A stretch of DNA of 64,000 nucleotides from an uncultured Gammaproteobacteria bacterium (GTDB lineage: Bacteria; Patescibacteriota; Patescibacteriia; UBA9934): NCBI GenBank assembly GCA_964401485.1, contig CAYNYL010000006.1, positions 4,208 through 68,207 on the forward strand, read 5' to 3'. The translations under genes were made by a program, and so were the position numbers. Below are positions 5,054 through 9,551 of the stretch, piece after piece. Within the stretch, counting starts at the first letter, position 1. Every line of letters starts with the position of its first letter. The notes under the pieces are model-generated. The model was given only the letters and a program-made list of their open reading frames with translations, did not search any database and was not told the DNA's origin.

Positions 5054-5159
5054 TCCCCAGGGTGATCGTTGACCGAAGCGCCTACATATGTTTCAATGAA
5101 TTCATCCCGGATGGCTTTACACGAGCTCCTAGGGTGACGCAAAAATATCCCCAATAGCG

Positions 5160-5173
5160 CGAACATTTGTTCA
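5160..5173 (+). promoter_or_regulatory. Cheo-type SOS box (GAAC-N4-GTTC) upstream of the lexA-MTase fusion gene, embedded in the palindrome ATCCCCAA...TTGGGGAT (5148-5186)
   Basis: Sequence cgCGAACATTTGTTCAga is a perfect match to the Gram-positive LexA operator consensus CGAACRNRYGTTYG. It lies ~105 bp upstream of the ATG at 5277. Confidence 0.55.
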
Positions 5174-5276
5174 GACTGTTGGGGATTTTTTGTTGCCCCT
5201 AGCGTCAACTTTAGTTTTCCACAGGCTCATTCGTGACATGCTTCCTTTTTCGTATTTTTTCGTATATTGTTTGAAT

Positions 5277-6836
5277 ATGAGCAAAAATCGCAAGCATCAA
5301 ATCCTCGAATATATAAAAACCCATATAAAATCGAATGGCGGGTCTCCGACCCTTTACGAGATAAAAAACGGCGTTGGCTTAAAGTCTGTGTCAACGGTAC
5401 ACAAACACATCAAAGACTTGATCAGTGAGGATCTTTTACGAGATGACGGCTTGAATGGATACATCATAACCGCGCACTCAAGCAACACATCTAGTCGCGT
5501 TTCAGTTATTGGAACTATTACCGCAGGTGCCCCTATCGAAGCCATTGAAGACAACGACGATATCGTATGGGTTTCCGATCTACCGGCAAACAGCGATTTT
5601 TATGCATTGCGCGTAGCTGGCGACAGCATGATCGACGAAGGAATCTTCGATGGTGATTTAGTCATAATTAAAAAGCAAACCTCTGCAGAAAATGGCCAAA
5701 CCGTAGTAGCAATTATTGATAATAACCAAGCAACGTTAAAAAAAATATATAAAGAAAAGGGGGTCTTCCGCCTTCAGCCAGCCAATCAGAAAATGTTACC
5801 TCTTTTTAAAACCGAAGTTGAGGTACGCGGCATCGTCTGGTCTGTGATTCGTAATTTTAACAGACAGAAAGTTAATCAATCAAAAATCATACCTACAAAA
5901 GAGTGGCGCACTGTTGATTTATTTGCGGGCGTTGGGGGCATTCGTCTAGGTTTTGAAAAGGTTGGTTTTAGCACTGTATTCGCAAACGATTTCGAAGCCA
6001 AGTGTGCGGAAACATACAATACAAACTTTAAAACAACAAAATTAACAATCGAAGACATCACAAAAATTTCAACCAGTGATATTCCAGACTGCGACTTTGT
6101 TCTCGGTGGCTTTCCGTGCCAAGCATTCTCGATTGCGGGCTATCGTCACGGCTTCGAAGACCTGAAAGGTCGCGGAAATTTATTCTTCGATATAGCCCGA
6201 ATCATACAAGATAAACAACCCACCGGTTTTTTACTCGAAAACGTTAAAAACCTTAAATCTCACGACAATGGGAAAACTTTCAAAATTATAGAACAGACGC
6301 TTAGGGACCTGGGTTATTTTGTAAAAACTAAAATCCTGAACTCAATGGAATACGGTAACGTTCCACAGAACAGAGAACGCATTTATATAGTTGGCTTCAA
6401 GGATCAAAAAAGAGCCTCGCGATTTGAATTCCCAGAACCGATTCCACTCACAAAAACGATCAAGGATGTTTTAGAGGAAAATGTGGATGGGAAATACTAC
6501 TACAACGGCAAACCGCTATATGAACGATTAAAGAACGACGTAAGCGAAGAAAATTCCGTTTACCAATGGAGAAGGCAATACGTACGAAAGAATAAAAAAG
6601 GCGTCTGCCCAACGCTAACCGCAAATATGGGGACCGGTGGACACAATGTACCGATAATCTTTGACGGGCAAGGAATAAGGAAGCTCACGCCACGAGAATG
6701 TTTTAGGATACAAGGCTTCCCTGACAACTACAAATTACCCAAACTCGCCGATAGTGCGCTATATAAACAGGCTGGAAACTCAGTTTCCGTACCAGTCTTA
6801 ACAAGAATAGCCGAGCAAATAATGAAAGTATTATAA
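5277..6836 (+). CDS. LexA repressor (winged-HTH plus S24 peptidase domain) fused in-frame to a DNA (cytosine-5)-methyltransferase. The ORF opens at 5190, but the likely start is MSKNRKHQ at 5277.
   Basis: Residues 1-~200 align along their full length with LexA: ITAGAP (Ala-Gly cleavage site), RVAGDSMIDEGIFDGDLVIIKK (catalytic Ser and Lys), and C-terminal VRGIVWSVIRNF versus E. coli GLAVGVIRNG. Residues ~215-520 carry C5-MTase motifs: DLFAGVGGIRLGF (motif I), GGFPCQAFSIAG (motif IV, catalytic Cys), ENVKNL (VI) and QNRERIYIVGF (VIII). Confidence 0.85.
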   Translation: MSKNRKHQILEYIKTHIKSNGGSPTLYEIKNGVGLKSVSTVHKHIKDLISEDLLRDDGLNGYIITAHSSNTSSRVSVIGTITAGAPIEAIEDNDDIVWVSDLPANSDFYALRVAGDSMIDEGIFDGDLVIIKKQTSAENGQTVVAIIDNNQATLKKIYKEKGVFRLQPANQKMLPLFKTEVEVRGIVWSVIRNFNRQKVNQSKIIPTKEWRTVDLFAGVGGIRLGFEKVGFSTVFANDFEAKCAETYNTNFKTTKLTIEDITKISTSDIPDCDFVLGGFPCQAFSIAGYRHGFEDLKGRGNLFFDIARIIQDKQPTGFLLENVKNLKSHDNGKTFKIIEQTLRDLGYFVKTKILNSMEYGNVPQNRERIYIVGFKDQKRASRFEFPEPIPLTKTIKDVLEENVDGKYYYNGKPLYERLKNDVSEENSVYQWRRQYVRKNKKGVCPTLTANMGTGGHNVPIIFDGQGIRKLTPRECFRIQGFPDNYKLPKLADSALYKQAGNSVSVPVLTRIAEQIMKVL

Positions 6837-6840
6837 ACAA

Positions 6841-7926
6841 TTACTCTATACATCGCCTGATATCTGCGAGCATAATCTCTTCTTTACTTGGTATCATATC
6901 AACGATAGATTTGTGGGCGAAATATTCGTCGAAATCTTTTGACGATCTATCGAGTATTCCGAACTTTATAATATATGCTTTATCAGCCTGCAAGACTATA
7001 TCATTCAGCATCGCTTCGCCCGTGGTAATGATGGTTACGGAGCTCTTGCTATTCTTTATGAAACGTATATTTTGGATGCCGTCAACGTAGATATCCAGCA
7101 TCTTGTGGCTCGCTATAGCGTCCAAAACATTACCATTCCACCGATACAGCCCGTCCCCTTTCGGTGAAATTATATCGGAAAATGGTGTAATTGTTGAAAT
7201 AATTTTTGGGGACCTGGTTTCGCGTATGCGCTCTACATACACCGGGCTCTCCTTTGCAAAACACAGCGTGGAAAAAGACATAAAATCGTTTGCCATGCAA
7301 ACCGTGATAGGCTTAAGAGATCCCAAATTTGTGTTTTGACGATCAATTCGTGCAACCGAAGAGACGTCGCTATTGTCGTTCGATTTTATAAAGACTTCAT
7401 CGTTCATTTTTAAACCCTCATAAACGCTATCGTCGGTTACCGTCTGCTCAAAAAATGGCAAAAGATAGTCGCAATTAAGATTTGTTTCTACCAAGACCAA
7501 ATATTTATGATCGTAGCCCTGATTACGCAAACTTACCATGTATTGAGCTTTCTTGAATGTTTTTACTTCAATTTGTGGTGAGCCCTCGAGGGCGCGCCAT
7601 TCGTTCACGTACTCTACGAATGGTTTTAACTCTGTTCCAACTTTAATTCCAAGAACATCAGGAGCTATACCGGATTCCTTCGGTTTATACTTATAATAAT
7701 CAGAAATTACAGATAAATTGTCCGCTATCTTTGGCAAGAAATATTTATTAAAAATAACACTTTCGGGAATAATGTTGATCCAGCGATCAAAAATACCGCC
7801 TATGTAATCGCTCTTGCCACTCAACCCTCCATACATTCTTCCTCGTTGCGCCAATGAGCAAACAAAGTAGATATACGGTATAACGTCCTCTTTATTGATT
7901 ACTATTTCTTGATTGATTCTCTGCAT
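6841..7926 (-). CDS. Hypothetical protein, candidate Type II restriction endonuclease cognate to the adjacent C5-MTase
   Basis: Lies tail-to-tail with the MTase with a 4-bp gap and shares its low GC. A possible PD-(D/E)xK-like arrangement is present (APDVLGIKVG...SPQIEVKTFKK). No other recognisable family signature. Confidence 0.4.
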   Translation of the reverse strand: MQRINQEIVINKEDVIPYIYFVCSLAQRGRMYGGLSGKSDYIGGIFDRWINIIPESVIFNKYFLPKIADNLSVISDYYKYKPKESGIAPDVLGIKVGTELKPFVEYVNEWRALEGSPQIEVKTFKKAQYMVSLRNQGYDHKYLVLVETNLNCDYLLPFFEQTVTDDSVYEGLKMNDEVFIKSNDNSDVSSVARIDRQNTNLGSLKPITVCMANDFMSFSTLCFAKESPVYVERIRETRSPKIISTITPFSDIISPKGDGLYRWNGNVLDAIASHKMLDIYVDGIQNIRFIKNSKSSVTIITTGEAMLNDIVLQADKAYIIKFGILDRSSKDFDEYFAHKSIVDMIPSKEEIMLADIRRCIE

Positions 7927-7931
7927 ATCAT

Positions 7932-9551
7932 TTACTTCTTAGCCGCTTTTAAAAAGCCGAGGAACAACGGGTGTGGGGACAATGGACGCGACTGGAATTC
8001 GGGATGAAACTGTACGCCAACAAAGAACGGGTGATCTTTCACTTCAACGATTTCAACGAGACGATTGTCGGGCGACGTTCCCGCGATAACAAGACCCGCG
8101 GATTCGAGCACCTCTCTGTAATCATTATTAAACTCGAAACGGTGGCGGTGGCGTTCGCTAATCGAATCGGTTCCGTAAGCCTTTCGCGAAGCCGTCCCTT
8201 TCTTAAGTACGCACGGATACGAACCGAGACGAAGCGTTCCGCCGATCCCGCCCTCCTCAAGTTTTTCTTCTTGATCATCCATTAAATGGATCACCGGCGC
8301 CTTTGTTTTCGGTTTAATTTCGGTTGTTTGCGCGTCCTTAAGCCCGCACACATTTCGCGCGAATTCGATTACGGCGCACTGCATTCCGTAACACAGCCCG
8401 AGATACGGAATTTTATGCTCGCGGACATAATTAATCACCGCAATCTTTCCCTCGATCCCTCGCGACCCAAACCCGCCCGGAATAAGAATCCCGTCGAAGG
8501 TCTTAAGCTCCGCGAGTTTCTCGGGATGTTTTTCATATTCCTCGGCGTTTAGCCATTCAATCTTTGGCATTTGCCCAGTCGCCCATGACGCATGCTTAAT
8601 TGCCTCAAGAACCGAAAGGTACGCGTCGGTCAAGATAAAATCGCCGGTTGAGAAGTACTTTCCAACAACACCGATATGCACCTCTTTCTTCACCGTCGTA
8701 ATCGTCCTCACGAGTTTTTCAAACGCGCGAAGGTCTGCCGGCTTTGATTTCATTTTATATGAGCGCAAAACGGTTTCCGCAAACTTCTGTCGTTCAAAAT
8801 TAAGCGGAACTTCGTAAATAGAACGCGCATTCGGCGCTGTAATAATATGATCCTTCGGCACCCCGCAAAACCGCCCAAGCTTTTCACGTCTCGGTTCGTC
8901 AAGCTCCGCCTCCGAGCGACAAATAATAAAGTCCGGCACAATTCCGACACGATTAATTTCGCGCACGGCGTGTTGCGTCGGCTTTGTTTTCATTTCTCCA
9001 ATCGACGGCGGAACCGGAAGGTAACTTACAAGAATCGTCTTTACCGCGTCCGGATCCTTCATCTTCATCATCCGTAGAGCCTCAAGAAACAGAATATTTT
9101 CATATTCCCCAACCGTTCCCCCGATCTCGATTAACACAAAATCCGCCTTCGCCTTATCCGCGGCGTGTTCAATCCGCGCGATCACTTCTTCCGGTACACG
9201 CGGAACAACCTCGACGCATTTACCGTGATAATCCCCCCGGCGCTCGCGCTCGATCACACTTTGATACACGCGCCCGGTCGTCATGTAATTATCCCGCGTA
9301 ATATCAATATCGAGGAACCGTTCGTAGTTCCCAATATCTTGATCAGTCTCGTCACCGTCAACCGTTACAAACACTTCTCCGTGTTCAACCGGGTTCATCG
9401 TCCCGGCGTCCACGTTCACATACGGATCTATTTTTATCGCAGTAACTTTGTAACCCCGAGCCTTAAGGGTAAGTCCGAGCGCAGCGCTTGACGTCCCCTT
9501 TCCAACTCCCGACATGACTCCTCCTACGATAAATAGATACCGATGTTTCAT
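7932..9551 (-). CDS. pyrG: CTP synthase. Likely start MKHRYLFIVGG at 9551; the ORF extends to 9569.
   Basis: N-terminal GGVMSGVGKG P-loop-like motif and C-terminal class-I glutamine amidotransferase domain (GFGSRGIEGK...LGLCYGMQ...HPEF). Confidence 0.95.
   Translation of the reverse strand: MKHRYLFIVGGVMSGVGKGTSSAALGLTLKARGYKVTAIKIDPYVNVDAGTMNPVEHGEVFVTVDGDETDQDIGNYERFLDIDITRDNYMTTGRVYQSVIERERRGDYHGKCVEVVPRVPEEVIARIEHAADKAKADFVLIEIGGTVGEYENILFLEALRMMKMKDPDAVKTILVSYLPVPPSIGEMKTKPTQHAVREINRVGIVPDFIICRSEAELDEPRREKLGRFCGVPKDHIITAPNARSIYEVPLNFERQKFAETVLRSYKMKSKPADLRAFEKLVRTITTVKKEVHIGVVGKYFSTGDFILTDAYLSVLEAIKHASWATGQMPKIEWLNAEEYEKHPEKLAELKTFDGILIPGGFGSRGIEGKIAVINYVREHKIPYLGLCYGMQCAVIEFARNVCGLKDAQTTEIKPKTKAPVIHLMDDQEEKLEEGGIGGTLRLGSYPCVLKKGTASRKAYGTDSISERHRHRFEFNNDYREVLESAGLVIAGTSPDNRLVEIVEVKDHPFFVGVQFHPEFQSRPLSPHPLFLGFLKAAKK

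Follow-up and report, generated by a model that had tools for sequence, protein, structure and literature searches.

What does a 361-amino-acid (aa) open reading frame (ORF) encode when it belongs to no recognisable family, runs tail-to-tail into a DNA methyltransferase gene and begins directly behind pyrG? The locus that raises this question lies in a 64,000-nucleotide stretch (hereafter the window) of contig CAYNYL010000006.1 (positions 4,208 to 68,207, forward strand; assembly GCA_964401485.1), deposited as an uncultured gammaproteobacterium and placed by GTDB in the Patescibacteriota. A first-pass annotation, made from the letters of the window and its ORFs, had proposed that the ORF is the cognate, PD-(D/E)xK-type restriction endonuclease of the neighbouring methyltransferase, which is itself fused to a LexA protein. 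Our analysis supports this proposal through conserved linkage to cytosine-5 (C5) methyltransferase genes, invariant residues, a nuclease-like predicted fold, controller-type genes in related loci and avoidance of GCNGC in host DNA. We place the probability that the ORF is the cognate endonuclease of a mobile, GCNGC-type Type II restriction-modification (R-M) cassette at roughly 0.72. The family has no entry in Pfam, NCBIfam, PADLOC, PHROGs or the PDB, and on the best reading of the data it would be a new PD-(D/E)XK family of Type II enzymes.

The annotation's statement that the ORF has no recognisable family held throughout: no match was found in Pfam, NCBIfam, PADLOC or PHROGs, or among PDB sequences by either single-sequence or profile search, and annotated plasmids and phages contained no homologue. 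A large protein collection held 421 homologues at E ≤ 1e-3, all of them unnamed or 'hypothetical'; most share 60–70% identity along their entire length, so that the ORF is a genuine gene rather than a chance frame. When 1.84 billion representatives were searched exhaustively with a profile, 178 clusters were recovered, and the cluster of the window protein carries no name. When 71 diverse family members were compared with Pfam, none (0/71) matched any model. The candidate catalytic motif that the annotation had picked out, APDVLG...PQIEVK, is present and strongly conserved: P89-D90 and E120-V-K122 are invariant in an alignment of 42 close homologues, and in the 71 sequences, which reach down to 23% identity, D90, E120 and K122 are among eight invariant columns (D76, Y80, D90, G93, W110, E120, K122 and E334), with E55 conserved in at least 90%. 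The ORF thus has the conserved acidic and lysine residues of the PD-(D/E)XK nuclease superfamily in their characteristic sequence, (E)...(P)D...(D/E)xK, and E55, D90, E120 and K122 would make up the metal-binding and catalytic set of its N-terminal domain.

The predicted structure is consistent with this assignment. An AlphaFold2 model built from a deeper alignment (predicted local distance difference test, pLDDT, 93.3; predicted template modelling score, pTM, 0.88) places E55 on a long helix (42–66), D90 just before a strand (93–96) and E120 and K122 within a strand (119–125), followed by a C-terminal half (~200–361) that is rich in beta structure; it supersedes a model made from close homologues only, which was poor in its N-terminal half (pLDDT 75.6) and gave an uninformative fold search. 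Structure comparison, proposed by the annotation as a check, gave a divided answer. Against predicted viral structures, the best Foldseek matches were proteins of ~150–170 aa (probability 0.97–0.99; E = 1.6e-3 to 9e-3), two of them named 'Restriction endonuclease', with a 'PD(D/E)XK endonuclease' protein and a Holliday-junction resolvase lower down; against the PDB, many EcoRV entries and Hjc resolvases from several archaea ranked at the top but were non-significant (E ≥ 0.3, probability ≤ 0.13). Taking conservation and model together, a PD-(D/E)XK nuclease is likely but not proven. The C-terminal region appears to be separable from the nuclease domain. Some relatives (P0192, P0212, P0214, P0217, P0223, P0238, P0239, P0252 and P0255) are 645–722 aa long and have one N-terminal nuclease domain; they carry two to four tandem copies of the beta-rich module (profile positions ~230–358), none has any Pfam domain, and the repetition suggests that the module is an independent, repeatable unit. 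It probably helps to bind or recognise DNA.

The association with methyltransferases was evaluated across hosts. A scan of species-representative genomes yielded 72 loci, designated L001 onward, from Patescibacteria, Clostridia, Bacilli, Erysipelotrichaceae, Alphaproteobacteria, Sphaerochaetaceae, Cyanobacteria and two archaea, and all ORFs of these loci were screened for C5 methyltransferases using phmmer. Ten loci were cut by a contig end; 60 of the 62 evaluable ones had a C5 methyltransferase within ~2 kb of the family gene, so that linkage to a methyltransferase gene, as expected of a Type II endonuclease, is conserved across hosts. The arrangement itself is variable. The family gene is convergent with a LexA fusion in the Patescibacteria clade, follows the methyltransferase gene in tandem at a distance of 2–15 bp in ten Bacilli loci, and is separated from it by a small gene in many Clostridia-type loci; two methyltransferases are present in ten loci. 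An R-M pair classically reveals itself by linkage of this kind, which outlasts rearrangement and reorientation of the genes and a change of host. Within the LexA-type cassettes the layout is stable: four homologues on long contigs were all convergent with a LexA-S24-methyltransferase fusion, with stops 0–5 bp apart and neighbourhoods otherwise unrelated, the spacing is 0–13 bp in most such cassettes, and L001–L026 show the same type of two-gene cassette in unrelated neighbourhoods. As the flanks differ from locus to locus, the gene pair moves as a unit.

Related cassettes also carry a gene typical of regulated R-M systems. In 6 of 20 related LexA cassettes, a gene for a 73–81 aa helix-turn-helix (HTH) protein of the HTH_3 family (PF01381, E = 1.6e-12), resembling R-M controller (C) genes, ends 1–9 nt before the ATG of the family gene, and these six consequently combine a C-type with a LexA-type regulator. 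A remnant of such a gene was seen in L013. In the window no C gene lies upstream of the candidate endonuclease gene, where pyrG is found instead. Other defence-related genes were seen sporadically: a Mrr_cat (Type IV restriction) gene lies directly upstream of the family gene in L011 (44–763), and a faint ThsB_TIR match occurs upstream in L001 (4893–5585).

A candidate recognition site was suggested by the company that the family keeps. In 29 loci, a RE_Bsp6I gene (PF09504; ~185–200 aa, E down to 4.6e-25) lies immediately next to the family gene, co-directional with it and on either side. GCNGC is the site of Bsp6I/Fnu4HI-type enzymes, and the corresponding methylases modify it as G5mCNGC (5mC, 5-methylcytosine; PMC9465063, PMC4926085, PMC11347163), so these neighbours suggest GCNGC as the target. 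The methyltransferase domain of the window is 57% identical to the L035 enzyme, which adjoins a Bsp6I-like gene, and the recognition core (YQWRR...VCPTLTANMGTGGHNVP) is nearly unchanged between the two. We found that GCNGC is strongly avoided: the observed/expected (O/E) ratio is 0.47 in the window outside the low-GC island described below (100 observed, 215 expected; z = -7.8), 0.49 in the 20 Patescibacteria loci (z = -9.1), 0.34 in the Bacilli loci (z = -4.6) and 0.37 in the Clostridia-type loci (z = -10.8). Among 512 strand-merged 5-mers, the strongest depletion in both the window and the Patescibacteria set is that of GCSGC, followed by GCWGC, and the cassette itself contains a single GCNGC site against an expectation of about four. 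No enrichment was seen for GTNGC, which deamination would produce (1.03 and 1.06), whereas changes of the outer G are enriched, a pattern that looks like selection against the site rather than mutational decay. The partner C5 methyltransferase is thus probably GCNGC-specific, and the endonuclease most likely cuts unmethylated GCNGC.

We also considered GCGC, given that the HhaI methyltransferase M.HhaI was the best PDB match of the methyltransferase. This HhaI-like specificity was rejected, as GCGC is not avoided (O/E 1.03) and the recognition loops differ from those of M.HhaI in exactly the region of the YQWRR core. No specific enzyme name emerged when characterised, named methyltransferases were sought close to the L035 enzyme. 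Cac824I (CAC1502) has been experimentally tied to GCNGC restriction (PMC2817722, PMC4736252); its primer-derived fragments 'GSLSGLFK' and 'IKIPEQL'/'KVVPES' bear a vague resemblance to family motifs, but comparison with the family gave no exact word match and conflicting reading frames.

The partner of the candidate endonuclease is a complete LexA protein, which makes up its N-terminal 200 aa, joined to a C5 methyltransferase. Pfam assigns LexA_DNA_bind (PF01726), Peptidase_S24 (PF00717) and DNA_methylase (PF00145) to the fusion, and NCBIfam recognises both the lexA equivalog TIGR00498 (148.2 bits; cutoff 110.95) and dcm (347 bits). An alignment of 21 fusions indicates that translation most likely starts at the ATG at 5277 rather than at the TTG at 5190. 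Downstream of the predicted cleavage bond Ala83-Gly84 lie the nucleophile Ser117 (in GDSM) and the base Lys155 (in ATLK), and the Ala-Gly pair, the serine and the lysine are retained in all 21 fusions; LexA-type self-cleavage is therefore probably functional. This architecture occurs in at least 120 clusters, mostly from Patescibacteria, and a literature search of limited reach found no relevant papers on LexA-methyltransferase fusions. Methyltransferase relatives of the L035 clade (P0286–P0389), ~430 aa in length, mostly have an N-terminal Xre-type HTH (PF01381/PF12844) where those of Patescibacteria carry LexA, so that one enzyme has been fused to two types of regulator and such fusion recurs in these methyltransferases, as it does in SsoII and Ecl18kI. 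The names given to the fusions are inconsistent (P0461, P0468, P0478 and P0497 versus P0434, P0449 and P0490), being 'transcriptional repressor LexA' at NCBI and 'DNA (cytosine-5)-methyltransferase 1' at JGI.

A candidate operator was identified at the methyltransferase promoter. The direct repeat TTTTCGTATT/TTTTCGTATA is unique in the window and had 0 matches in 100 shuffles; its unit is TTTTCGTAT, the conserved direct repeat measures 10–11 bp, and a second subgroup of cassettes has the form TTCGGnTT-N3-TTCGGTTATAAT. A repeat of the same or a related form is found at the corresponding position in 17 of 20 other cassettes, and within those it has no further occurrence, the endonuclease side included. 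About 20 nt upstream of the repeat, an exact DnaA nonamer (TTATCCACA/TGTGGATAA) is present in 13 of the 20 cassettes (L004, L007, L008, L010, L011, L013, L015 and L018–L023), and the window has a similar nonamer with one mismatch; these sequences suggest that DnaA, and with it replication, may influence expression of the methyltransferase. A Gram-positive-type LexA box, GAACATTTGTTC (GAAC-N4-GTTC, 5161–5172), was rejected as a feature of the cassette, since its frequency in the window is that of chance, and it is absent from all 20 other cassettes. It falls in the loop of a terminator-like hairpin after alr (5149–5192; CCCCAA...TTGGGG followed by a T-run). The -10-like box of the methyltransferase gene ends 8 nt before its ATG (5263–5279), and TGnTATAAT-like boxes lie ~10 nt before the ATG of the family gene in L003, L009, L010, L018, L020 and L024; such proximity on both sides suggests leaderless or nearly leaderless mRNAs.

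The layout that the first-pass annotation had described was confirmed by direct reading. The ORF is a low-GC frame of 361 codons with an ATG start, it ends 4 bp from the convergent methyltransferase stop, and it starts 5 bp behind the pyrG stop on the same strand; the intervening promoter or terminator that the annotation had allowed for was not found, as a site scan of the interval between pyrG and the ORF detected neither a promoter-like nor a terminator-like site. With no terminator after pyrG, expression of the ORF by read-through is expected, and a Shine-Dalgarno-like AAGAAG hexamer lies at -14 to -9 of its ATG, within the 3' end of pyrG. The nearest upstream promoter-like match on this strand is ~1.4 kb away, inside pyrG. 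The top sigma-70-like match of the region (7169–7197, minus strand; TCAACA-17-TATAAT, 10/12) lies within the candidate endonuclease gene on its coding strand, and the total of promoter-like matches in the region is no higher than in shuffles. Both genes of the pair form an island of ~40% GC in a genome of ~51%, the composition profile giving 0.38–0.42 over ~5250–7900 and ~0.47–0.55 in the flanks.

This position is peculiar to this genome. The cassette is absent 3' of pyrG in the pyrG loci of all 80 relatives, in 46 of which the rplI-pyrG synteny is kept; the closest pyrG relatives are 69–71% identical, and no 'empty site' genome was found among them. In other cassettes the family gene has its own promoter or a C gene, unlike the copy in the window. 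As the cassette stands behind pyrG in this genome only (0/80), its coupling to pyrG is an accident of insertion and no design principle. We suppose that the candidate endonuclease gene lost its own promoter or C gene upon insertion and would since have been transcribed by read-through from rplI-pyrG; translational coupling to pyrG is possible as well. Positions of all features are collected in Table 1.

Table 1 Positions of the cassette features in the window and of selected genes in related loci (L-numbered loci in their own coordinates)
Feature	Position	Strand	Remarks
Cognate methyltransferase gene (candidate)	5277..6836	plus	519 aa; LexA (winged HTH + S24) fused to C5 DNA methyltransferase; stop codon 6834-6836
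Predicted LexA self-cleavage bond, Ala83-Gly84 codons	5523..5528	plus	numbering from ATG 5277
Direct repeat, candidate LexA operator	5247..5266	plus	TTTTCGTATT/TTTTCGTATA; overlaps -10-like TATATT (5263-5268)
DnaA-box-like nonamer	5215..5223	plus	TTTTCCACA; one mismatch to TTATCCACA; upstream of methyltransferase promoter
Spacer between convergent stops (methyltransferase/endonuclease)	6837..6840	none	4 bp; no terminator fits
Candidate Type II restriction endonuclease gene	6841..7926	minus	361 aa; ATG 7924-7926, stop codon 6841-6843; ORF list and direct reading
Candidate nuclease domain, PD-(D/E)XK-type	residues ~1-200	minus	E55, D90, E120, K122; conservation and model
Candidate beta-rich module	residues ~200-361	minus	conservation and model
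pyrG-endonuclease junction	7927..7931	minus	5 nt, ATGAT; read directly; pyrG stop 7932-7934 (minus)
Low-GC island, inserted two-gene cassette	5190..7931	none	bounds: terminator-like hairpin after alr, pyrG stop; GC profile
Controller-like HTH_3 gene	L007:172-393		Patescibacteria cassette
Controller-like HTH_3 gene	L008:4769-4990		Patescibacteria cassette
Controller-like HTH_3 gene	L015:283-504		Patescibacteria cassette
Controller-like HTH_3 gene	L016:569-790		Patescibacteria cassette
Controller-like HTH_3 gene	L019:171-416		Patescibacteria cassette
Controller-like HTH_3 gene	L022:4040-4282		Patescibacteria cassette
Bsp6I-like gene (example)	L035:4690-5250
Bsp6I-like gene (example)	L061:6138-6728
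Bsp6I-like gene (example)	L024:4921-5484
Solitary homologue	L028:4956-6113		Poseidoniales/Methanobacteriota metagenome-assembled genome
Solitary homologue	L029:3681-5051		Poseidoniales/Methanobacteriota metagenome-assembled genome

Several observations weigh against the assignment. The tandem C-terminal modules of the long relatives are unusual for Type IIP enzymes, and the avoidance of GCNGC shows selection on the site in these lineages, not which protein cuts it. The candidate operator is a direct repeat and no palindrome, and known LexA dimers bind palindromes. The annotation had held that copies of the gene without an adjacent methyltransferase would speak against it, and two such copies exist, set against linkage in 60 of 62 loci. 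These syntenic archaeal homologues (L028 and L029), 52–53% identical, have genes for a fatty-acid desaturase, a wyosine radical-SAM protein and a glycosyltransferase as neighbours; they have no methyltransferase within 5 kb and nevertheless retain all 23 conserved residues, which is odd for an active toxic endonuclease. GCNGC is not avoided in these two loci (O/E 0.98 and 1.14), a result that counts against the assignment and also provides a natural control. A further difficulty is that the family protein could be an accessory in the 29 loci with a Bsp6I-like gene. One may postulate that it is an accessory nuclease or a DNA-binding partner in GCNGC-type C5 methyltransferase systems, be it a second subunit or helper for Bsp6I-like endonucleases or a Vsr-like nuclease repairing the T:G mismatches that deamination of 5-methylcytosine leaves, and that the methyltransferase of the window is an orphan under LexA control. 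The tight coupling of the two genes in both orders would fit such a role, as would partners that are exclusively C5, and hence deamination-prone, methyltransferases; efficient repair could also explain why GTNGC is unenriched despite methylation, tolerance of the solitary archaeal copies without a nearby methyltransferase would pose no puzzle, and some relatives have repeats of the C-terminal module. We nonetheless consider an accessory role improbable, because the Bsp6I-like gene is absent from the 64-kb window, from 19 of 20 other LexA cassettes and from all ten tandem Bacilli loci, where avoidance of GCNGC is equally strong. Ten loci, moreover, contain two methyltransferases and two nucleases laid out as two complete pairs (in L042 the order is family gene, methyltransferase, Bsp6I-like gene, methyltransferase), and these may be two fused R-M systems of overlapping specificity or a two-nuclease system. 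Controller-type HTH genes directly upstream of the family gene are a hallmark of endonuclease genes, and the two-gene cassette is highly mobile. Sequence, profile and fold comparisons revealed no similarity to Vsr or Bsp6I-like proteins: for Vsr there was no match in Pfam or NCBIfam, among PDB sequences or among the fold matches, neither the ORF nor its 71 relatives matched PF09504, and homology to the Bsp6I-like neighbours, which a shared 'PDVL...VK' had led us to suspect, was rejected (hhalign probability 0.1% against 13 neighbours).

An alternative scenario concerns the window copy alone, in which the gene lost its promoter behind pyrG and was silenced or domesticated, leaving the LexA-methyltransferase functionally orphan. 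The absence of its own promoter or C gene 5 nt behind pyrG, where relatives are preceded by a C gene or a TGnTATAAT box, and a placement unique among 80 pyrG loci are what such a remnant would show; the ORF, however, is not truncated and has lost none of the invariant or nearly invariant residues of the family, the identical protein sequence is found on three public contigs, host DNA strongly avoids GCNGC, and the Shine-Dalgarno-like AAGAAG before the ATG together with the lack of a terminator after pyrG make read-through expression the expectation, so that we give this scenario only a slim chance. Least probable of all, to a degree that we would discount it, is a modification-dependent nuclease, of Type IV or resembling BisI, with methylated GCNGC or other modified DNA as its substrate. 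Enzymes of the BisI family are of PD-(D/E)XK type and have methylated GCNGC as their recognition site (PMC11347163, PMC4926085), and solitary archaeal copies would be unproblematic for such an enzyme; in 60 of 62 loci, however, it would attack DNA modified by its own linked methyltransferase. The catalytic motif here is a canonical ExK and not the QxK of the BisI family (PMC11347163), and neither PDB sequences nor fold matches included the solved BisI-family structures NhoI and Eco15I.

Taken as a cognate restriction endonuclease with its methyltransferase, the cassette suggests a regulatory scheme, which we set out conditionally. The C5 methyltransferase would protect the GCNGC sites of the host, and the LexA part of the fusion would bind, through its winged helix, the direct repeat that overlaps the -10 box of its own promoter, thereby holding its own synthesis at a set level. 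DNA damage, including breaks made by the endonuclease when methylation falls short, would lead to RecA-stimulated self-cleavage at Ala83-Gly84 and detach the DNA-binding domain; the promoter would then be derepressed and output of methyltransferase would rise. With the annotation, we infer that the balance of methyltransferase to endonuclease responds to DNA damage, now on better grounds, namely the cleavage residues kept in 21 of 21 fusions and a repeat found at the methyltransferase promoter only. That the cassette is on this basis a self-monitoring R-M system, in which autorepression and a path from endonuclease breaks through RecA and fusion cleavage to more methyltransferase provide negative feedback against autoimmunity, is a more tentative proposal that we hold at well below even odds.

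If the assignment is right, the 178 representative clusters would make up a restriction endonuclease family whose hosts range from Patescibacteria through Clostridia and Bacilli to archaea, and for which GCNGC is a concrete prediction of the site. A methyltransferase fused to a damage-cleavable LexA is possibly a new control principle for toxic R-M systems, and a RecA-sensitive switch would tie protection of the genome directly to DNA damage. In the small genomes of Patescibacteria, the LexA of this mobile element may be the only one in the cell, in which case a selfish defence element would be wired together with the SOS response. Plain labels such as 'LexA' or 'methyltransferase' on these fusions can also mislead attempts to reconstruct SOS regulons or defence systems in candidate-phyla bacteria.

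With EcoRV-like and Hjc-like PD-(D/E)XK nucleases the family shares the order of catalytic-type residues: a helix carries a glutamate, and D and (D/E)xK follow on successive strands. The equivalents of E55, D90, E120 and K122 in EcoRV are E45, D74, D90 and K92. There is no sequence similarity between these nucleases and the family, and the additional 160-residue C-terminal module of the family has no match. Type IIP systems of the Bsp6I, Fnu4HI and Cac824I type, in which a GC^NGC endonuclease is paired with a G5mCNGC C5 methyltransferase, have the target that we predict for the window cassette, and Bsp6I-type systems are likewise compact, mobile two-gene cassettes; the Bsp6I endonucleases, however, are unrelated in sequence to the window family, half as long and without the extra C-terminal module.

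With respect to regulation, R-M systems are known to be controlled by C proteins, by antisense RNAs and by non-cleavable fusions of an HTH domain to the methyltransferase. PvuII, BamHI, Esp1396I and AhdI are examples of Type II systems regulated by C proteins, and the HTH_3 gene of the six related cassettes occupies the typical position of a C gene; the window cassette has none, whereas in those cassettes a C gene and a regulator-fused methyltransferase together amount to a double layer of control. The fusion itself is best compared with SsoII and Ecl18kI, for which C5 methyltransferases with a regulatory N-terminal DNA-binding region are established (PMC3978073, PMC2760811). The window cassette resembles these systems in having a DNA-binding domain at the N-terminus of a C5 methyltransferase and an operator-like element at the methyltransferase promoter, where binding is predicted. 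It differs in that the candidate operator is a direct repeat, and in that its genes are convergent rather than divergent, so that one operator cannot serve both promoters. The regulator is also distinct: the N-terminal region of SsoII has no sequence relation to the fusion, which contains a complete LexA with its S24 domain and intact Ala-Gly, Ser and Lys, and such a self-cleavable regulator could allow control of the methyltransferase to be switched irreversibly by DNA damage.

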